From contig WJJZ01000010.1 in NCBI GenBank assembly GCA_014729395.1, forward strand, positions 23,901 to 87,900: a DNA stretch of 64,000 bases, written 5' to 3'. The notes under the pieces were generated by a model that had not been told where the DNA came from, did not search any database, and was given only the letters and a program-made list of their open reading frames with translations. This DNA comes from Candidatus Magasanikiibacteriota bacterium (GTDB lineage Bacteria > Patescibacteriota > Patescibacteriia > Magasanikbacterales > UBA922). The position numbers and the translations under genes are program-made. Of the stretch, positions 1-31,392 are shown in pieces (position 1 is the first letter of the stretch; every line of letters starts with the position of its first letter).

Positions 1-509
1 TTGAGTTGCATAAACTACTATCAAAAGATGATTTATTACTACAAACAGAAAAGAGAATAAAGCAAACTATATATCTACCTTTGTACGGAAGAGATAAGAC
101 AGTTTTTAAAAAAAGTGGTTTGAATCAGTGGAATGCAGGAGGAAGAGATCGACACCCTAATGAAGTCTATATTCCTATCCCAGCAGAAATTCATAAAAAC
201 TTTCCTGGATTTTTTCCAGGTAGAAATATTTCATTTTCTCTTAAATTACCAAATGGAGAAAAAATGAAATCAAAAGTCTGTCAGGACAACAACAAAGCCC
301 TCATGTCATATTCTAATAGAGAGCTTGGAGAATGGATTTTAAGAGACGTCTTGGAATTAAATGAGGGAGAGCTTTTGACCTATGAAAAGTTACAAACCTT
401 AGGGGTTGATTCCGTAAGAATTGACAAAATTAATAATTCTGAATTTGAAATAAATTTTTCCAAGACAGGAAGTTACGAAAAATTCAGAAGTACTTTTCAA
501 GTTAAGTAA
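1..509 (+). CDS. Restriction endonuclease, C-terminal fragment (ORF open to the left window edge; B3/EcoRII-N-like DNA-recognition domain, NgoFVII/BfiI-like)
   Basis: Frame is open from nt 1 and the first in-frame start is TTG at nt 6. The LNQWNAGGRDRHPNEVYIPIP motif is recalled from memory as resembling NgoFVII/BfiI-family C-terminal domains. It lies tail-to-tail with a C5-MTase and next to vsr. Family assignment is from memory, not a search. Confidence 0.4.
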   Translation, partial: ELHKLLSKDDLLLQTEKRIKQTIYLPLYGRDKTVFKKSGLNQWNAGGRDRHPNEVYIPIPAEIHKNFPGFFPGRNISFSLKLPNGEKMKSKVCQDNNKALMSYSNRELGEWILRDVLELNEGELLTYEKLQTLGVDSVRIDKINNSEFEINFSKTGSYEKFRSTFQVK

Positions 510-517
510 ATCAGCAA

Positions 518-2083
518 CTACTCTATAGCTTTTTTAATTTGTAATGCAATCGATTTTACTACTGGCACACTGACTGAATTTCCAAACTGTTTATATAGCG
601 CAGAATCAGACATATTCTTTGGCAGTTTAAAATCCATTGGAAATCCTTGAATTCTGGCACATTCAAGTGGTGTTAGTTTTCTAATTCCTTTTTTATCTCT
701 GATGATTGGAACATTGTGCCCTCCCATACCCATGTTAGCCGTAAGTGTCGGACAGACTCCTTTTTTATTTTCACGCACATATTTTCTTCGCCACTGGTAT
801 ACCGTTTCTCTGCTTTTAACTTCATCTTTTAACTTTTCATAAAGTGGTTTTCCATTATAATAGTATTTTTCATCCACTTTTTCTTCAAGTAAATCAGTGA
901 TTTTTTTTGTAAGTTTCACAGTGCCAGGAAAGTTAAATTTTTCATAGTGTTTTTTATCCTTGAAGCCAACAATATAAATTCTTTCCCTATTTTGAGGAAC
1001 ATTCCCATATTCCATGCTATTCAAAACTTTTGATTTTACATGATAACCAAGATCTTCAAGTGTCTCTAATATGATTCTAAATGTTTTTCCCTTATCATGT
1101 CCTTTTAGATTTTTCACATTTTCAAGCATAAACCCCATTGGCTGTTTTTCTTTCAAAATACGAGCAACATCATAAAACAAATTTCCCCTCCCTTTTTCAT
1201 CATCAAACCCCTGTCTATAACCAGCAATCGAGAAAGCTTGACATGGAAATCCCCCGAGTAAAAAATCAAAATCAGGAAGTTTTTTTTCATTTATCTTTTG
1301 TATATCCTCAACGAACAATTTTGTTCCATCAAAATTTAAATCATACGTATCTTTACATTGTGATTCAAAATCATTTGCAAAAACAGTTTCAAAACCAGCT
1401 TCTTCAAAACCTAACCTTATTCCCCCCACTCCTGCAAATAAATCGATTGTTTTGAAAAGTTTTGTTTTTGGTAACTGTTTTCCAAAATCTCTAATAATTT
1501 TTACTACAACCCCTTGTACTTCAACTTCTTTACGAAACATCGGTAACAAATTTTGATTTGCTGGTTGCAGTCTAAATTTATTTTTTTCACGGTATATTTT
1601 TTTAAGCGTCGCCTCATCTTTATCTATCAAAGCAACAACGGTCTGTCCATTGTCAGCAGAATCTTGTTTCTTTAAAACTACAACATCACCATCAAAAATT
1701 CCATCTTCAACCATACTATCACCGGCAACTCTCAAAGCGTATAGTTGTTCTGGATCAAAATAAGTATCTCTAGCTATGTTAATAGTTTCGCCCTTCGTCT
1801 CAAGAGCTTCAATTGGCTGACCAGCAGCGATTGTACCAACAAGTGGAATATCTATAGAATCCACTTTACCAGGTTTTCTGACACCAAGACCCCGTGTGGC
1901 ATTTTCATCTTTAGTAATGTATCCTTTTTCGATCAACGCATTTACATGTTGATAAACACCCGACAAGGCCTTCAACTTTAGATGTTTCCTCAACTCCTCA
2001 AAAGTTGGCGAGAAACCTTTTTTTTCTATAAATGACTCGATGTAATCTAAAATTTGTTTTTGTCTTTTTGTAAGATTTGGCAT
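518..2083 (-). CDS. LexA-like repressor (wHTH + S24 self-cleaving peptidase) fused to DNA (cytosine-5)-methyltransferase
   Basis: Residues 1-200 align end-to-end with LexA: LTKRQ..GYI wHTH, IPLVGTIAAGQPI with the Ala-Gly site, GDSM Ser and ATLKK Lys. Residues 205-521 carry C5-MTase motif I DLFAGVGG, IV GFPCQAFS, VI ENV, VIII QNRER and X GNSVSV. Confidence 0.85.
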   Translation of the reverse strand: MPNLTKRQKQILDYIESFIEKKGFSPTFEELRKHLKLKALSGVYQHVNALIEKGYITKDENATRGLGVRKPGKVDSIDIPLVGTIAAGQPIEALETKGETINIARDTYFDPEQLYALRVAGDSMVEDGIFDGDVVVLKKQDSADNGQTVVALIDKDEATLKKIYREKNKFRLQPANQNLLPMFRKEVEVQGVVVKIIRDFGKQLPKTKLFKTIDLFAGVGGIRLGFEEAGFETVFANDFESQCKDTYDLNFDGTKLFVEDIQKINEKKLPDFDFLLGGFPCQAFSIAGYRQGFDDEKGRGNLFYDVARILKEKQPMGFMLENVKNLKGHDKGKTFRIILETLEDLGYHVKSKVLNSMEYGNVPQNRERIYIVGFKDKKHYEKFNFPGTVKLTKKITDLLEEKVDEKYYYNGKPLYEKLKDEVKSRETVYQWRRKYVRENKKGVCPTLTANMGMGGHNVPIIRDKKGIRKLTPLECARIQGFPMDFKLPKNMSDSALYKQFGNSVSVPVVKSIALQIKKAIE

Positions 2084-2175
2084 ATTATATTTTTGACTGA
2101 TTACACTACTTGGTACTATAATATATATTATACCGAAAATTAACAGAATAAAAAAGCTCTAATTATCCACACTCC

Positions 2176-2589
2176 ATGGCCGACTGCTTTACAAAAGAAA
2201 AAAGGAGTGAAGTAATGTCGAAAATAAGAAGCAAAGAGACTGAAATAGAAAAAATGGTATTCAGACACTTGAGAAAAAATAAAATTTATTTTCAAAAGCA
2301 CTATAACAAGGCTCCTGGCAAACCCGACATTGCACTACCCCAAAAAAAGAAAGCTGTATTTATTGACGGCGACTTTTGGCATGGCTGGCAATTTTCAAAG
2401 AAAAAAAGAAAACTGCCCAAAAAGTATTGGTTACAAAAGATTGAAGGCAATATCAAGCGTGATAAAAAAAATCGCGCTAAGCTTAAGCGGGATGGGTGGA
2501 AAGTTTTAAGGGTTTGGGAGCATCAATTAAAAAAAGAGGGGGGAAAATATCTGGAAAAAATTACTAAATTTTTAAAAAATTCAATATGA
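2176..2589 (+). CDS. vsr: Very short patch repair endonuclease Vsr (T:G mismatch endonuclease partnered with m5C methylases)
   Basis: TKEKRSEVMSKIRSK N-terminus plus PGKPDIALP and FIDGDFWHGW motifs characteristic of Vsr; divergent from the C5-MTase. Confidence 0.8.
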   Translation: MADCFTKEKRSEVMSKIRSKETEIEKMVFRHLRKNKIYFQKHYNKAPGKPDIALPQKKKAVFIDGDFWHGWQFSKKKRKLPKKYWLQKIEGNIKRDKKNRAKLKRDGWKVLRVWEHQLKKEGGKYLEKITKFLKNSI

Positions 2590-2595
2590 AAAAAT

Positions 2596-3492
2596 ATGAT
2601 TACCTCTCACTATGCGTTCTCAGATGACTCTTGTCATGTCAATGGAAGATATAATAGCCTTGCTCTGGTCAGCCTTCAAAAAAAAGACCTAGAAGCAATT
2701 TCGAATTCATTTGTGGAACTACTTAATGAGTCTGGAATAAAAAAAGAATTTAAATGGGAAAAAGTAAAAAATGCAAAATATCGTTTAGCAGGCGAGAAAA
2801 TTATAAATTTAGTATTTAAATATCAAGCAAAATTAAGAATAGATGTTGTTATCTGGGATTTGGAAGATCAGCGTCATAAAAACATAAAAGGTTGTGATGA
2901 TGCAGAAAATTTAGTTAGAATGTATTATCATTTGGTTTCAACAACTCTTTCACGAAAATGGCCAGTGGCTAATAATTGTTGGCGGTGGCATCCAGACAAA
3001 CAATCTTCTGTATGTTGGAATTTATTGCAGGATTGTATAACTACAAAAAAACATCATCGCACTGCGGATTTATTAAATCAAAATCCAAATTTTGAACAAG
3101 TTAATCTAAAAAGTGTAATACCATCGGAATCATGTAAATATCCATTGATACAGCTAGCAGATTTATTTGCTGGAATGGGCTCATATTCTTATGGCCACAA
3201 TGAATTATATAAAATTTGGAAAAATCAAAATACACGACAAATATCCATGTTTGATGTACCAAAACATAAATTTAGCAATGGAGAAATGGAAAAATTCACT
3301 TTGTTGAGTAAATTTGATAAAATATCTAAAGAAAACAAATTAAAAATTGCCTTACTATCAACCTGCGGATTAAAATCACATAATCCGAACTGTTTTGTTA
3401 ACTTTTGGCCGTACACTCCACAACACAAGTTTGACAAAGCACCAACGAAAATTAGAATGTGTGATTGTTATCGAAAAGATTCACCCCTTTAA
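2596..3492 (+). CDS. DUF3800-family protein
   Basis: Size about 300 aa and a QLADLFAG motif typical of DUF3800. Embedded in the R-M/Mrr cluster. Confidence 0.45.
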   Translation: MITSHYAFSDDSCHVNGRYNSLALVSLQKKDLEAISNSFVELLNESGIKKEFKWEKVKNAKYRLAGEKIINLVFKYQAKLRIDVVIWDLEDQRHKNIKGCDDAENLVRMYYHLVSTTLSRKWPVANNCWRWHPDKQSSVCWNLLQDCITTKKHHRTADLLNQNPNFEQVNLKSVIPSESCKYPLIQLADLFAGMGSYSYGHNELYKIWKNQNTRQISMFDVPKHKFSNGEMEKFTLLSKFDKISKENKLKIALLSTCGLKSHNPNCFVNFWPYTPQHKFDKAPTKIRMCDCYRKDSPL

Positions 3493-3532
3493 ACCTTCTC
3501 CCTCTATAATTAGAAAAAATAAATAATAAAAT

Positions 3533-4429
3533 ATGTCAATGCCAAAATTTGAAGAAACTATGCTACCAATACTCAAAGTTTTACGAAACGAAAAAGTTAT
3601 GTCTATGCAAGAACTAGCTGACGAACTCTTAGAAAACTACTTTAACTTAACAGAAGAAGAAAAGAAAGAGACTGTCTCAAATGGGTACAGTCGCTTTTTT
3701 GATCGTGTCAGCTGGGGGAGAACATATTTAAAAAAGGCCGGCTTATTAGAACAACCAGAGAGAAGCAAAGTTAAAATAACAAAAGAAGGTATAAAGGTTG
3801 TTTCATCTGGGATAGATGCAATTGATGTAAATTTTTTAAATCAGTACCCTTCGTTCATCGCTTTTTTAGCAGGAGGTAAACAAAAAACAAAACAAGAGGT
3901 GGGAGAAGCTATCATAAAGCAATTTTCTCCACAAGATATGGTTGATTTAGGTTTTCAAGATATCCAAGAAACATTAAAAAGCGATCTTTTGGAAAAGTTG
4001 TATAGTACAAATCCCTACTTTTTTGAAAAGGTGGTTTTAATTTTATTTCAAAAAATGGGGTATGGAGATTTTCAGGAAACATCAAAAACTGGAGATGGCG
4101 GTATAGATGGCATAATTAGTCAGGATAAATTAGGGCTAGAAAAAATATTTATTCAAGCAAAAAGATATGCTGAAGATAACAAAGTTAGAGAACCAGCAAT
4201 TAGAAATTTTATAGGTGCGATGAGTCGCGACGTTAGTAAGGGTATTTTTGTTACAACATCCACCTTTGATGAAGCAGCTGTTAAGAAAGCACGAGACGCA
4301 AACCATAAAATAATTTTGATTGATGGAGAAAAATTGACAGAATTGATGATAAAAAATAGTGTTGGCGTTCAAGTTAAAACGGTATATCAAGTAAAGGAAA
4401 TCGATAATGATTTCTTTGAAGAAGGGTAA
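3533..4429 (+). CDS. mrr: Mrr-family type IV (modification-dependent) restriction endonuclease
   Basis: N-terminal winged-helix region followed by the Mrr catalytic core: GDGGIDGII, IFIQAKRY, GIFVTTSTFD and ILIDGEKL. Confidence 0.8.
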   Translation: MSMPKFEETMLPILKVLRNEKVMSMQELADELLENYFNLTEEEKKETVSNGYSRFFDRVSWGRTYLKKAGLLEQPERSKVKITKEGIKVVSSGIDAIDVNFLNQYPSFIAFLAGGKQKTKQEVGEAIIKQFSPQDMVDLGFQDIQETLKSDLLEKLYSTNPYFFEKVVLILFQKMGYGDFQETSKTGDGGIDGIISQDKLGLEKIFIQAKRYAEDNKVREPAIRNFIGAMSRDVSKGIFVTTSTFDEAAVKKARDANHKIILIDGEKLTELMIKNSVGVQVKTVYQVKEIDNDFFEEG

Positions 4430-12344: not shown

Positions 12345-14924
12345 ATGATCCAATTTACCGGATCTCCGGTTTCACAATCATTTTCCAACAACGCCGGGAT
12401 ACTTAACGATCCACTTTTTTTCTATGCAATTATAGCTGTTGTCAGCATATTCATATTTCTATCATTTCTTTTCATTTTAAGAGCTTTATTACGGTTTAAA
12501 TCCAGACAAAGCAAAGCATTTAATCGAGTTGTACTGCAAATAACCGTACCAAAAGAAAAAAAATCTGAGGGTACCGGCGGCCAAGGTTCTCAAGAAGACA
12601 GACTGGAACAAATAAAAGAAGAAATAGGTCTGACTGAAACGGTTTTTGCGGCTATTGCCGGTATAAAGCCACAGGGAGGCATCAGTAGCTGGCTGCGCGG
12701 CAGAAACGACCACACCAGTTTTGAGATGGTAATGCATGAAGGTTTGATATACTTTTATGTTTCCGTTCCCGACAGAATGCATAGCTTCATTGAACAGCAA
12801 ATTCATGCTCAATACCCTTATGCTCATATTGAAAAAATGAGTGATTATAATATTTTTTCAAAAAACAGTTCTATTGTCGGAGCATATCTAAAAAGTAGCG
12901 CCCCGGCCGTTTTCCCGCTAAAAACATACAAATCCATGGAAGCCGACCCTCTATCGACCATTCTCAACGTCTTGGCGAAAGTCAGAGAAAATAACAGCTC
13001 GGCTGCCATTCAATTTACGGTCAGACCGGCGAATAAAAACTGGCGCAGCAAAGGAGTCAGCATCGTAAGAGAAGTAAAAAAAGGAAAAAAATTCGAAGAC
13101 GTAGTATCCGGCTCCAAATTTATGAAGGCCCTGAAAATAGTTGGCCAAGGAGTTGGAGAGCAAGTAAAAAGCCCGGAAACTCTTCAGAGAGAAAAAGACA
13201 AAGATCATTACCAACTTTCCGCCATGGAAGAAGAGATGCTAAAAGGCATTGAGGAAAAAATATCCAAAGGTGGAATGCAAGCTACAATCAGGCTTATAAG
13301 TGTATCAGACGATGAAAGTACCGCTCGATTGAATTTAGACAATCTAATAAATGCCTTTTCTCAATTTAATTTGTATAGATATGGAGCCAGTTTTAAAGCG
13401 ATTGTACCCAAAACCCAGTCAAAACTGATCAGAGACTTTATTTACCGATCCTTTAGTGAAAAATACAACATGATTCTAAATACGGAGGAAATGTCCAGTT
13501 TATGGCATTTACCTCTTCACTCTACCGAAGCACCAAATATAAAGTGGCTAACAGGTCGAAAGGCTCCCCCACCCCCGAATATACCGACAGAAGGACTTTT
13601 AATCGGTTTTGTAGAGTATCGAGGACAAAAAACAAATATTTATATGAAAGAAGCCGATAGACGCCGTCATATGTATTTAATCGGTAAGTCCGGTGGTGGT
13701 AAATCCGTATTTATTGCCAAAATGGCTGTCCAAGATATCCATAATGGCAAGGGCGTCTGTGTGGTAGATCCTCATGGTGATTTGGTAGAATATGTTTTGA
13801 GTCACATTCCAAAAGAGAGAGCTGACGATGTTATTATTTTTGATCCTTCCGATGTGGAGCGCCCGATCGGTCTAAACATGCTAGAGGCAAAATCTGAAGA
13901 CCAAAAAGATTTTGCGGTGCAAGAAATGATTTCCATTTTTTACAAACTCTTCCCTCCTGAAATGATCGGCCCCATGTTTGAACATAATATGCGAAATGTC
14001 ATGCTGACTTTGATGGCTGATTTGAAAAATCCGGGAACTGTAATTGATATTCCTCGCATGTTTACGGATGACGAATATGTAAAAAAATATTTGGCAAAGC
14101 TGAAAGATCCGGTTGTACGAGCGTTTTGGGAAAAAGAAATGGCAAAAACAAGTGATTTTCATAAATCAGAAATGCTTGGTTATCTTATTTCCAAAGTCGG
14201 CCGTTTTGTGGAAAATGAAATGATGAGAAATATAATGGGCCAGCAAAAATCGGGTTTTGACTTCCGAGAAGTAATGGACCAAAACAAAATATTGCTTGTG
14301 AACTTAGCCAAAGGTAAAACCGGAGAAGTTAATGCCAAACTGCTTGGCCTGATTGTTGTAGCAAAACTGCAAATGGCCGCTTTGGCAAGAGCTGATATGC
14401 CCGAAGAACAAAGAGATGATTTTTATTTATATATAGATGAGTTTCAAAACTTTGTTACTGATTCCATTTCCACTATCCTCTCTGAAGCCAGAAAATATAA
14501 ACTAAATTTAATTATCGCCCATCAATACATGGGCCAGTTGACAGATGATAAAGGACGAGCTGATATTAGAGACGCAGTCTTGGGTAATGCCGGTACGATT
14601 TGTTCAGCCAGGATAGGTCCGGACGACGCTGAAATACTGGCAAAAGAATTTGCTCCGACCTTTGGTTCCTATGATCTTTTGAATGCTCCCGAATATTCTT
14701 GGTATACAAAGATGTTAATTGATAATACAGCCTCCAAACCGTTCTTAATGCAAACTTTCCCACCGGAAGAAGGTAGTACAGAGCTCGGCTCGGCCATCAA
14801 AGAATTATCAAGATTAAAATTTGGTCGAGACCGTCGTATTGTTGAAGCGGAAATAATGGATCGTACCAAAATCGGACAGCCCGAAAGCCAAGGCAACACA
14901 GAAGCGGCAGAAGCCAGCCTGTGA
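12345..14924 (+). CDS. VirD4/TraD/TraG-family (FtsK/HerA superfamily) P-loop ATPase with N-terminal TM segment
   Basis: Walker A GKSGGGKS, Walker B LYIDEFQNF, an N-terminal TM helix, and size 859 aa. Matches what is usually annotated as a type IV secretion system DNA-binding domain protein in CPR genomes. Confidence 0.6.
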   Translation: MIQFTGSPVSQSFSNNAGILNDPLFFYAIIAVVSIFIFLSFLFILRALLRFKSRQSKAFNRVVLQITVPKEKKSEGTGGQGSQEDRLEQIKEEIGLTETVFAAIAGIKPQGGISSWLRGRNDHTSFEMVMHEGLIYFYVSVPDRMHSFIEQQIHAQYPYAHIEKMSDYNIFSKNSSIVGAYLKSSAPAVFPLKTYKSMEADPLSTILNVLAKVRENNSSAAIQFTVRPANKNWRSKGVSIVREVKKGKKFEDVVSGSKFMKALKIVGQGVGEQVKSPETLQREKDKDHYQLSAMEEEMLKGIEEKISKGGMQATIRLISVSDDESTARLNLDNLINAFSQFNLYRYGASFKAIVPKTQSKLIRDFIYRSFSEKYNMILNTEEMSSLWHLPLHSTEAPNIKWLTGRKAPPPPNIPTEGLLIGFVEYRGQKTNIYMKEADRRRHMYLIGKSGGGKSVFIAKMAVQDIHNGKGVCVVDPHGDLVEYVLSHIPKERADDVIIFDPSDVERPIGLNMLEAKSEDQKDFAVQEMISIFYKLFPPEMIGPMFEHNMRNVMLTLMADLKNPGTVIDIPRMFTDDEYVKKYLAKLKDPVVRAFWEKEMAKTSDFHKSEMLGYLISKVGRFVENEMMRNIMGQQKSGFDFREVMDQNKILLVNLAKGKTGEVNAKLLGLIVVAKLQMAALARADMPEEQRDDFYLYIDEFQNFVTDSISTILSEARKYKLNLIIAHQYMGQLTDDKGRADIRDAVLGNAGTICSARIGPDDAEILAKEFAPTFGSYDLLNAPEYSWYTKMLIDNTASKPFLMQTFPPEEGSTELGSAIKELSRLKFGRDRRIVEAEIMDRTKIGQPESQGNTEAAEASL

Positions 14925-21148: not shown

Positions 21149-21219
21149 CTCGGGAGCAGGGATTTGAACCCCGATAGCCAGGACCAGAACCTGGAGTCCT
21201 ACCATTAGACGACTCCCGA
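21149..21219 (-). tRNA. tRNA-Gln (anticodon CUG)
   Basis: Hand-folded cloverleaf with 7-bp acceptor UCGGGAG/CUCCCGA, D-arm GUCU/GGAC, anticodon stem CCAGG/CCUGG with loop UUCUGGU, T-arm CGGGG-UUCAAAU-CCCUG and discriminator G; CCA is not encoded. Confidence 0.75.
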
Positions 21220-22842: not shown

Positions 22843-23016
22843 AAAATGGCTTAATTAAGCGTAAAAAAAATTTATAAATTCAATATTGAATTACAGTCAA
22901 AGCAATCGCTATTATATAACAAATTATCCAGTTGGTAAATGGCTATATTTTTTTATTGCCTTTAGGTATATGTTGTGTTATACTGTGGATAAGTTTATTT
23001 TTAATATAAAAAACTT

Positions 23017-29621: not shown

Positions 29622-29819
29622 TTACTTTGTACCAAGGAAACCAGGCCAACCGCCCTTTTTCTTCCAAACATCTGAATAGGTTTGGTGTGGACCAGACGGG
29701 AGACGGAGGTCCTGTTTGTAGCCTTTGATATATCCTCTAGAGGTTTTAAACCCCAAAGCCTGGGCAGCTTTGGAAGCTTCTTCCCAAGTTTCGTAGAAAC
29801 TAATTATTTTTTTACCCAA
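29622..29819 (-). pseudogene. Frameshift-separated fourth copy of the helicase C-terminal repeat
   Basis: Encodes GKKIISFYETWEEASKAAQALGFKT..GGWPGFLG, identical in pattern to repeats 1-3 of the upstream helicase. Separated by a +1 frameshift in a G3 (vs G2) run near 29835. Confidence 0.5.
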
Positions 29820-31392
29820 GAAACCAGGCCAACCGCCCTTTTTCTTTCCAGACCTCGGAGTAACTATTATTCGGGTCAGATGGAAGACGGAGGTCTTTTC
29901 TGTAGTGTTCTTGGTATTCTGTTTTAGTTTTAAACCCCAAAGCCTGGGCAGCTTTGGAAGCTTCTTCCCAGGTTTCGTAGAAACTAATTATCTTCTTACC
30001 CAAGAAACCAGGCCAACCGCCTTTTTCTTTCCAGACCTCGGAGTAACTCTTATTCGGGTAAGATGGAAGACGGAGGTCTTTTCTGTAGTGTTCTTTGTAT
30101 TCTGTTACAGTTTTAAACCCCAAAGCTTGTGCAGCTTTGGAGGCTTCTTCCCAGGTAGGGTAGAAATTCCGAGACAGCATAACATCAACATAGTCGAGAA
30201 TCCCGACAACCTCTTCCAAGTACTCATCATAGAACACCTTAAAGCCGGTTGAGACCTCTCTCACATCGGTGTCATAATCATCCCGAAGGCCGACAGAAAC
30301 CAGCTGTCCGATGAATTCCAAGCGCCGGTAGGTGCCGACAAAGTCCATGACAACCACTTTTTGCTTGTCTCTGGTCTTGCGCAGACCTCGACCGAGCTGC
30401 TGGTACCAGACTACGGCGCTTCTGGTTGAACGCAGGAAGACGATCAGGTCAACAGTGGGGATGTCAATTGCTTCATTGAACATATCCACCGTGAGTAGTG
30501 TCCGAATCTCTCCTCTTTGAAACGCTTGGAAGCGCTCTTTGAGAGTCTTTGTCTTGAGGCCCGAATGGTATGACACAGCCTCGGGAAAGTATTTGTTGAC
30601 TCTCCTAAGGTGGCTGATCGAACGACAGAAAATGACCGCCTGTTTGTCAGCAACCGACTGCTCGGCTTTGACAGTTTCGGCAATCGCTTCCAGTTTTTCA
30701 ACTAGAAAGAGATTTTTGTCAAGTTTTGTCTTTGAAATGGAGCGGTCCTCTTGCCTGACTCTCTCGATGAGATCTTGTATAACCTCTCTTGAGATGTTGT
30801 CGGTCAAGAGCCGGTACTCCACCTCAGCCAGCCACTCGTTGTCAGCGAGTGCCTCTTTCAAGCCGTAGGAGTATACCTCGTCTCCAAAGATATCCCTGAT
30901 ATCAAGACCATCTCCCCTGAAAGGAGTAGCGGTCATACCAAGCATGAACCGGGGTGTGAAGTAGTCGATGATTTCCTTGTAGGTCTCTGCATGAGAATGA
31001 TGAGCCTCGTCTACGATGACAAGAGAAAACTCATCCTCTTCCAGCTCCCAAACAAGGCTTTCCTGCATGGTCTGAAAAGTACTAAGGAGCACCGTGGCAT
31101 CCTTATCTTCTTTGACCACGCCATTGACAATCGAGATGCCGGGCTTGTCCTCAAGACTGAAGAGAGCCTCTTCAAACTCCTGTTTGGCCTGATACAGCGG
31201 GTCGGTCATATGAAGGATAAAGAGAACTTTACCTCCATAATTTTCCAACCAATAGCGAATGATGTTGCCGGCGAGCACTGTCTTGCCCAAGCCGGAGGCC
31301 ATGGAAATTAGAACAGTTTTGAATCCACTGCTCACGGCCTCAAGGATAGCCGACTTAGCTTCTTCCTGATAAGGTCTGAGTGTTTTCATCAC
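29812..31392 (-). CDS. SF2 (DEAH/ResIII-type) helicase with C-terminal tandem 60-aa repeats
   Basis: Motif I MASGLGKT, motif II VIVDEAHH, motif III TATP, motif VI QQLGRGLR; followed by three repeats of ETWEEASKAAQALGFKT..EY..YRKDLRLPS.PN.SYSEVWKEKGGWPGFLG. Confidence 0.8.
   Translation of the reverse strand: MMKTLRPYQEEAKSAILEAVSSGFKTVLISMASGLGKTVLAGNIIRYWLENYGGKVLFILHMTDPLYQAKQEFEEALFSLEDKPGISIVNGVVKEDKDATVLLSTFQTMQESLVWELEEDEFSLVIVDEAHHSHAETYKEIIDYFTPRFMLGMTATPFRGDGLDIRDIFGDEVYSYGLKEALADNEWLAEVEYRLLTDNISREVIQDLIERVRQEDRSISKTKLDKNLFLVEKLEAIAETVKAEQSVADKQAVIFCRSISHLRRVNKYFPEAVSYHSGLKTKTLKERFQAFQRGEIRTLLTVDMFNEAIDIPTVDLIVFLRSTRSAVVWYQQLGRGLRKTRDKQKVVVMDFVGTYRRLEFIGQLVSVGLRDDYDTDVREVSTGFKVFYDEYLEEVVGILDYVDVMLSRNFYPTWEEASKAAQALGFKTVTEYKEHYRKDLRLPSYPNKSYSEVWKEKGGWPGFLGKKIISFYETWEEASKAAQALGFKTKTEYQEHYRKDLRLPSDPNNSYSEVWKEKGRLAWFLG

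Follow-up and report, generated by a model that had tools for sequence, protein, structure and literature searches.

The window analysed here, a stretch of 64,000 nt from a Candidatus Magasanikiibacteriota bacterium (assembly GCA_014729395.1, contig WJJZ01000010.1, positions 23,901 to 87,900 of the forward strand), opens with a type II restriction-modification (R-M) module whose DNA cytosine-C5 methyltransferase (MTase) is fused to a complete LexA repressor. We read this protein as a self-repressing LexA-methylase, which would be released by DNA damage within a type II R-M module carrying several add-on genes, and we assign to this reading as a whole a probability of about 0.55. Its parts differ in strength. 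Autorepression of the methylase is well supported at the level of sequence, the adjacent vsr-DUF3800-mrr unit is probably repressed by the fusion as well, and we infer that the module responds to DNA damage. Self-repressing methylases are already known; the literature searched yielded no case in which a cleavable LexA plays this part, nor any relevant description of LexA-methyltransferase fusions or of LexA in Patescibacteria (candidate phyla radiation).

The two halves of the fusion were recognized by profile and structure searches (domains, catalytic residues and their coordinates are collected in Table 1). The protein scores above the threshold of the NCBIfam LexA equivalog TIGR00498 (186 bits versus 111), covering positions 1-202 of 203, and it also passes the dcm superfamily model of the same collection. 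Among solved structures, residues 2-199 match full-length LexA (3K2Z, 1JHH) and residues 210-518 match M.HhaI (2e-61). The protein thus differs from stand-alone LexA, which has about 200 residues, in being a methylase-fused product of 521 amino acids (aa). Its predicted recognition helix is S41-G-V-Y-Q-H46. An earlier note on this DNA, made from the sequence alone, had named the LexA-MTase in its title, and this naming stands; however, the note drew nothing from the fusion, although it is the most informative feature of the region.

The fusion is not confined to the window. A protein search gave more than 120 clusters of full-length, three-domain homologues (67-94% identity), whose labels include Parcubacteria, Moraniibacteriota, Paceibacterota, and similar names. 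In a tblastn search of GTDB species-representative genomes, at least 306 of the 369 stretches matched by six peptide patterns encode a relative of the fusion, and the best 80 loci kept from these pattern matches, essentially full-length fusions and mostly with Patescibacteria labels, constitute the genome-scan set used below. At 50% identity the family collapses to essentially one cluster, which points to a single origin of the fusion. Several fusion-bearing records of metagenome-assembled genomes (L002, L004, L009, L011, L015, L073, and others) are titled Gammaproteobacteria, Bdellovibrionales, Saccharibacteria or Rhabdochlamydiaceae; as their fusions are 62-86% identical to the Patescibacteria ones, these titles look mislabelled or mis-binned.

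Across 187 distinct fusions, A87, G88, S123, and K161 are each invariant (187/187), while the LexA part falls to 47-82% identity across the family. The Ala-Gly, Ser, and Lys residues of LexA serve self-cleavage and not DNA binding. Their invariance in an otherwise diverging LexA part therefore indicates that self-cleavage appears to be under selection, and by analogy with LexA this cleavage would be stimulated by RecA. The methylase part is the best-conserved one: 136 of its 312 positions are at least 98% conserved in the same 187 sequences, in which motif I and the PC and ENV motifs do not vary at all, and the target-recognition region (residues ~428-470) hardly varies within the family. The fusion is hence real and under selection, and not an assembly artefact. 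The design is common to hundreds of Patescibacteria and probably couples methylase output to DNA damage.

The second line of evidence comes from the promoter region. The candidate operator of the fusion is a direct repeat lying between a -35-like hexamer and the TATAAT box of the fusion promoter, and its commonest form among the loci is TTTCGGT-N4-TTTCGGT. When TTCGG-N6-TTCGG was sought in the 870 kb of loci, all 50 matches were located at most 120 nt upstream of a fusion gene, and the exact operator of the window occurs once in 64 kb. Sub-clades with other repeats alter both copies together: one has TTTTCTA-N4-TTTTCTA, and in another the repeat is inverted (TCGAAA-N5-TCGAAA) and follows the -10 box. 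Moreover, four operator classes pair one-to-one with four classes of recognition helix, namely STxH(E/Q)H, SGxYQH, STAH(H/Y)Y, and STAH(H/F)H, in 73 of 73 loci and with no cross-combinations, the classes being clades; the SGxYQH helix, which is that of the window, pairs only with TTC(A/T)GY-N5-TTCNGT. Such co-variation of repeat and helix is what a repressor and an operator private to it would be expected to show. An SOS regulon in the window was considered and rejected, as one-mismatch matches to the operator occur at chance level (6 versus 4.9 expected), and a multi-gene SOS regulon with repeated operator copies was not seen in the 64-kb window or in the 870 kb of loci. Two other explanations of the promoter architecture were ruled out: a C protein as the repeat-binding factor, since about 65 of the 80 loci have repeats without a C protein, and a methylation-sensitive promoter, since there is no GCNGC site in 2084-2175.

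The operator region is shared with the divergent vsr gene. The 16-nt palindrome TATAATATATATTATA provides a -10 box in each direction, and in the window, as well as in seven of nine Vsr-bearing loci, the -10 box of the vsr strand ends 6-13 nt before the operator, which in the window falls at about +1 to +25 of the predicted vsr transcript. The start codon of vsr is separated by 5 nt from an exact DnaA box (TGTGGATAA, the reverse complement of the consensus TTATCCACA), which is located upstream of the operator at a distance of about 20 nt. Upstream of 40 fusion genes, and on the strand of the gene, the motif TGTGGAWAA is present, 159 times as dense as elsewhere in the loci. It usually precedes the repeat by about 20 nt, whereas in one sub-clade it lies in the 5' leader. 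In the sub-clades with altered helix and repeat, the sequence of the box is unchanged and only its position has moved. The constancy of the box where helix and repeat change argues that it is read by a host factor and not by the LexA domain; the box as a LexA site was ruled out on the same ground. Further exact DnaA boxes are present in the window at 22984 (+ strand, upstream of dnaX), 25491 (- strand), and 62249 (- strand).

The restriction endonuclease (REase) of the pair is cut by the left edge of the window. Its visible part corresponds to a B3-like DNA-binding domain (Pfam RE_NgoFVII_C, 2e-16) and matches the PADLOC REase_II model PDLC03479 (1e-50, profile positions 222-373 of 376). In the closest relative, whose fusion is 94% identical to that of the window, a complete enzyme of 373 aa is encoded at L081:4803-5924; its residues 207-373 and the visible part of the window REase are 89% identical. 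This alignment places about 206 N-terminal residues of the window REase beyond the edge, and the L081 enzyme was used as the complete sequence in the searches. No Pfam nuclease or catalytic-domain model matched the N-terminal half of the L081 enzyme, and a sequence search with the complete enzyme returned no significant match among solved structures; a link of the REase to any solved phospholipase D-type (PLD) or B3 enzyme could not be confirmed by the structure-sequence search. The earlier note had taken the 1-509 product for the C-terminus of an REase provisionally, on the strength of a motif (NQWNAGGR..EVYIPIP) and of context; the identification is borne out by these matches, and the motif is located within the B3-like domain.

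The note had likewise proposed that the tail-to-tail REase and C5-MTase genes form an R-M pair, and the comparison of loci supports it: a convergent gene adjoins the 3' end of the fusion gene in 80 of 81 loci, and several of these genes encode recognizable REases. The gap between the two genes is 3-15 nt in most of the 81 loci and reaches about 80 nt at most in a few, while some partners overlap the end of the fusion gene by a few nt; no terminator-like hairpin was found by the terminator scan at 510..517 of the window. Such pairing argues for a conserved R-M module and not a chance neighbour, and the MTase, with a cognate-type convergent nuclease next to its stop codon, is not an orphan. The partners themselves fall into at least eight unrelated clusters. 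They include the Bsp6I family (PF09504, 21 loci), the NgoFVII_C type present in the window (10 loci), a PDDEXK_5 protein, and two clusters matching one PADLOC REase model. Three clusters (c1, c2, and c7) have no match in Pfam or PADLOC, and their members may be regarded as candidate new GCNGC-type nucleases. As six partner families occur among fusions at least 84% identical to that of the window, the nuclease is replaced much faster than the methylase diverges. The genes upstream of the fusion are hypervariable (62 clusters among 76), with Vsr being the commonest; the direct repeat and the DnaA box nevertheless accompany the fusion. In 15 of the 80 genome-scan loci, the nuclease gene is preceded, at a distance of 5-19 nt, by a gene for an XRE/HTH_3 protein of about 73 aa, and this holds for five nuclease families (e.g., the C-protein-like genes at L022:8147-8440 and L016:6636-6917, both on the - strand); no such gene is visible in the window, and L081, the closest relative, has none. 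This suggests a conserved chassis of C protein and LexA-methylase with an exchangeable nuclease between them.

The partner families and the composition of the loci point to the same target sequence. Bsp6I cuts GCNGC, and NgoFVII recognizes GCSGC. In the pooled loci, GCNGC is the most avoided short palindrome (observed/expected 0.58, z = -23.7); the ratio is 0.63 after masking of the R-M genes and 0.38-0.72 in all eight REase classes, with 1.08 for the control CGNCG. This avoidance, taken together with the specificities of the partners and the nearly invariant target-recognition region, argues for GCNGC methylation across the family, and the target of the MTase is most likely GCNGC or its GCSGC subset.

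The fusion and its nuclease stand at one end of a five-gene island, whose open reading frames (ORFs) are all present in positions 1-4429 where they had been reported, and which is confirmed as an R-M and repair island of a Magasanikbacteria genome. A Pfam profile search, proposed in the earlier note, returned a domain match for each of the five proteins, and the identities suggested there for the Vsr divergent from the MTase, for the DUF3800 protein, and for Mrr as a modification-dependent nuclease all held, the first two with scores above the cut-offs of their models. The island as such is ordinary (an R-M pair with Vsr and Mrr); what is noteworthy is the fusion with its operator and DnaA box, and the exchange of its partner nucleases.

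Vsr aligns to E. coli Vsr (1CW0, 2.6e-16), in which Asp51 and His69 are catalytic and Cys66, His71, and Cys73 bind zinc. The equivalents of Asp51 and His69 are kept in the window protein, His64 is replaced by Asp, and the three zinc ligands are replaced or missing. Vsr is encoded divergently from the fusion in about 13 of the 80 loci (58-68% identity), and the form lacking zinc ligands recurs beside other fusions in this identity range.

The DUF3800 protein, 100% identical to NCBI GF349_02945, has 3puf_A, with an RNase H2-like fold, as its top structural match, and retains the C-terminal QxxD motif (Q186, D189) together with an N-terminal acidic residue; it is predicted to be a metal-dependent nuclease with an RNase H2-like fold. 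Homologues with 57-63% identity are encoded 1-3 nt downstream of other DNA methyltransferases (L085:5001-5858, L087:5001-5867, and L089:2854-3714). In these contexts, the methyltransferase is either a small N6_N4 methylase or of the Eco57I/MmeI type, the latter with a PLD-SNF2 helicase ahead of it, which indicates a recurrent tie of the family to DNA-modification modules. Mrr comprises an Mrr_N (5.9e-25) and a PD-(D/E)XK-type Mrr_cat domain (1.2e-35), and matches PADLOC mREase_IV over positions 1-315 of 317 (9.6e-66). A distant relative, L048, whose fusion is 66% and whose Mrr is 40% identical to that of the window, shows the same arrangement of REase, LexA-MTase, Vsr, and Mrr, which argues that Mrr and the m5C methylase are compatible. 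Among the genome-scan loci, this is the only one with Mrr beside the fusion (1/80), and none has DUF3800 (0/80). The neighbours beyond the R-M pair thus vary between loci, and the five-gene island is specific to this genome.

Table 1. Features of the LexA-methylase R-M module and of the adjoining genes (window positions)
Feature	Position	Strand	Basis or remark
Type II REase, C-terminal 168 residues	1..509, frame from base 3 (3..509)	+	open at left window edge
REase/MTase spacer, 8 nt between convergent stop codons	510..517	.	sequence
LexA-C5 methyltransferase fusion, 521 aa, single ORF	518..2083	-	Pfam, NCBIfam, PDB matches
C5-MTase domain, residues 210-518	530..1456	-	PF00145 DNA_methylase 2.4e-97, profile positions 1-324 of 324
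Catalytic Pro280-Cys281 of MTase	1241-1246	-	PC motif
Linker between LexA and methyltransferase, ~14 residues (196-209)			variable
S24 self-cleavage and dimerisation domain, residues 80-194	1502..1846	-	PF00717 Peptidase_S24 2.3e-28
General base Lys161	1601-1603	-	codons confirmed in sequence
Nucleophile Ser123	1715-1717	-	codons confirmed in sequence
Cleavage site Ala87-Gly88	1820-1825	-	codons confirmed in sequence
LexA winged-helix DNA-binding domain, residues 1-65	1889..2083	-	PF01726 LexA_DNA_bind 1.9e-16
vsr promoter	-35 TTGACT 2093-2098; -10 2117-2122	rightward (+)	promoter scan 11/12
16-nt palindrome TATAATATATATTATA	2117..2132	.	TATAAT -10 box in each direction, back-to-back
Fusion promoter -10	2127-2132	leftward (-)	within TATAATATATATTATA
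Candidate operator, direct repeat TTCTGT-N5-TTCGGT, period 11	2132..2148	-	abuts -10 of fusion promoter
DnaA box TGTGGATAA	2163..2171	-	exact match to reverse complement of consensus TTATCCACA
Vsr, divergent from fusion	2176..2589	+	TIGR00632 109 bits vs cut-off 97.85; PF03852 2e-22
DUF3800 protein, 6 nt after vsr	2596..3492	+	PF12686 31 bits vs cut-off 21; PADLOC PDC-M04A 1e-14
Mrr, type IV modification-dependent REase, 40 nt after DUF3800 gene	3533..4429	+	Mrr_N and Mrr_cat

The genes to the right of mrr encode a Bact_hydrolase protein, an MFS transporter, a GNAT acetyltransferase, and a P-type ATPase, none of them a recognizable defence gene, which sets the right end of the island at about 4430; its left boundary lies beyond the window edge. 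The fusion was not found in IMG/VR viral contigs, in which only stand-alone methylase relatives occur, and these contigs gave no sign of a phage-borne module. Elsewhere in the window, an 859-aa protein with the type IV secretion coupling-protein domains T4SS-DNA_transf, TrwB, and TraG-D_C is encoded 8 kb from the island, at 12345-14924 (+ strand). A ResIII/SNF2-type helicase with integrase-repeat (INT_rpt) units is encoded at 29812-31392 (- strand); its gene lies within the sole patch of raised G+C content in the window (44.5% versus ~34%), which may be foreign DNA. The Rfam search of the window yielded only a tRNA gene, at 21149-21219.

When compared with described systems, the module combines features that are known separately. 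Methylases repressing their own promoter via an N-terminal helix-turn-helix are an established class, and the SsoII, Ecl18kI, EcoRII, MspI, and ScrFIA-type enzymes are likewise type II C5-MTases with an N-terminal DNA-binding domain; in these, the operator overlaps the methylase promoter (PMC3874152). In contrast to their helix-turn-helix of ~70 residues, the protein described here has a complete LexA of ~200 residues with an intact self-cleavage domain, and its candidate operator is a period-11 direct repeat. The gene order differs as well: the REase gene is convergent here and it is vsr that is divergent and shares the intergenic region, whereas in the SsoII type the REase gene is divergent. 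With LexA, lambda CI, SXT SetR, and the UmuD-type S24 proteins, the fusion shares the S24 domain, the Ala-Gly site, and the Ser/Lys dyad, the arrangement here being a winged helix followed by S24, and a private operator on a mobile module mirrors the RecA-sensing repressors of phages and integrative and conjugative elements. Unlike the LexA-like repressors of mobile elements, the fusion is joined in frame to an enzyme, has no regulon beyond its own promoter in the available sequence, and would control an R-M module and not a switch for lysogeny or transfer.

As regards the restriction partners, the Bsp6I and NgoFVII_C families link the module to the GCNGC systems (Bsp6I, Fnu4HI, NgoFVII), and GCNGC is avoided in the flanks of the relatives; the window REase matches, in Pfam, only the C-terminal B3-like domain of NgoFVII, and the specificity given here is deduced from sequence. 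The E. coli Dcm-Vsr pair likewise places an m5C methylase next to a Vsr-family endonuclease. Its genes overlap in one operon, whereas they are divergent here; in the Vsr described here, the zinc ligands are not retained and His64 is replaced by Asp, and Dcm, unlike the present methylase, has no restriction partner. The C-R-like gene order of 15 of the 80 related loci recalls the convergent systems with a C protein (Esp1396I), although control of the methylase is assigned here to its own LexA domain. Finally, the DUF3800 protein belongs to the same Pfam family, with an RNase H2-like fold, as those of type VII retrons and of a sub-branch of Cas12a2; 3puf_A is the top structural match for DUF3800 also in PMC7736814, and an RNase H fold of DUF3800 was reported in PMC10910872. 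In the window and in the three homologue contexts, however, the gene follows a DNA methyltransferase gene or vsr, and not a reverse transcriptase or Cas gene.

These features can be combined into the following mechanism. The LexA part would dimerise via its S24 domain, and the dimer, seated on the period-11 repeat of its own promoter, would keep methylase synthesis low; as the operator lies in the vsr transcript start region, it would, in this window, gate vsr-DUF3800-mrr too. DNA breaks, arising for example from self-restriction when methylation lags, would lead to RecA filaments and these to self-cleavage at Ala87-Gly88, whereupon the DNA-binding domain would be released, the promoter would open, and both methylase and Vsr would rise. 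Stronger methylase transcription across the 8-nt convergent gap may interfere with transcription of the restriction gene. The net effect would be a damage-triggered restriction alleviation combined with homeostasis. Vsr would repair T:G mismatches arising from deaminated 5-methylcytosine, and the replication initiator may provide a second input, as is suggested by the conservation of the DnaA box.

Several points weigh against the damage-released, self-repressing LexA-methylase. LexA dimers usually bind inverted repeats, direct repeats being known for alphaproteobacterial LexA. Because the operator and helix classes are clades, their co-variation amounts to about three or four independent events and not to 73. 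The N-terminal half of the REase and its promoter lie off the window, and no recA gene is present within the 64 kb. As in the case of E. coli LexA fragments, cleavage could also mark the methylase-bearing fragment for degradation, which would reverse the outcome. Moreover, GCNGC is unavoided in the window, with observed/expected 1.01 over 59.6 kb (4430-64000) against 0.63 in the flanks of the relatives, and 0.95 for GCSGC; the words avoided there are CGNCG, CTAG, and CGCG. Restriction pressure may have set in only recently here, may be weak, or may be lacking altogether. The missing avoidance, and the fact that only the DNA-binding domain of the REase is visible in the window, would also suit an R-M pair that is inactive in this genome, where the methylase acts alone beside a restriction gene that is inactive or newly arrived. 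We consider this quite unlikely, as the visible part of the REase is an intact ORF, 89% identical to the complete enzyme of the closest relative, and 64 kb from a single genome offers little material for judging an avoidance that takes time to develop after acquisition.

The other alternatives concern what the LexA part does. It could be a plain autorepressor, i.e., only a module for DNA binding and dimerisation, with no self-cleavage and no response to damage. An operator private to the fusion's own promoter and the lack of a visible SOS-type regulon in the window or in the loci fit this, and autorepression of methylases is a known strategy (PMC3874152). However, the invariance of the cleavage Ala-Gly and of the Ser/Lys dyad in all 187 sequences, while the LexA part falls to 47% identity, is hard to explain without selection for cleavage, and in the SsoII-type systems a short helix-turn-helix suffices for repression alone; a plain autorepressor is thus unlikely. 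If, on the other hand, cleavage destabilised or inactivated the methylase, methylation would drop upon DNA damage or phage replication and the REase would kill the cell, by the logic of abortive infection or post-segregational killing. The same conserved cleavage machinery would serve such a suicide device, whose N-terminal fragment would end with Ile-Ala-Ala, similar to Val-Ala-Ala, the end by which the LexA fragment of E. coli is targeted to ClpXP. R-M systems do act as toxin-antitoxin modules (PMC3874152). Nevertheless, cleavage detaches no more than residues 1-87, with the S24 and methylase part remaining whole, loss of the repressor domain should increase transcription, and co-expression of Vsr suits the upkeep of methylated DNA rather than suicide, which makes this outcome distinctly improbable.

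Least of all does the fusion resemble a housekeeping SOS regulator, that is, the general LexA of the cell controlling repair genes genome-wide. It does pass the NCBIfam LexA equivalog and bears the NCBI name LexA, it is widespread and well conserved in Patescibacteria, and there is no other lexA within the 64-kb window. Yet the 870 kb of flanks and the window contain no second operator copy, the upstream neighbours are hypervariable (62 clusters among 76), the fusion is always paired with a restriction-type gene, and operator and recognition helix drift jointly between sub-clades, as expected for a private pair. Furthermore, a separate LexA of 214 aa, which has an Ala-Gly site, a Ser, and a Lys of its own, is encoded in a Moraniibacteriota genome at L016:7432-8076 (- strand), 1.3 kb from the R-M module, so that the fusion is an extra LexA paralogue there, and stand-alone LexA is common in Patescibacteria (486 clusters). 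We regard such a general role as highly improbable.

R-M systems must keep methylation ahead of restriction, and the controls known to achieve this are C proteins, self-repressing methylases, methylation-sensitive promoters, and antisense RNA. If the reading of a damage-released LexA-methylase is true, the cleavable LexA would add to these a direct input from DNA damage, that is, a built-in restriction alleviation for a type II system. In its widest form, which we put forward tentatively, the fusion would define a class of Patescibacteria R-M systems sensing DNA damage and possibly replication, in which breaks made by self-restriction or by phage would act back on how methylation and restriction are balanced; they would have a fixed chassis of LexA-methylase, operator, and DnaA box, sometimes joined by a C protein, into which at least eight unrelated nucleases for the same site have been swapped; in the present genome, Vsr, DUF3800, and Mrr would be under damage control as well. 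The family also constitutes a natural experiment, in which one near-invariant methylase is combined with eight or more unrelated nucleases, several of them unannotated, and its pairs of operator and recognition helix form a ready-made set of LexA specificity variants. To our knowledge, Patescibacteria largely lack CRISPR and have very small genomes; the module is common among them and may account for much of their defence against phages.

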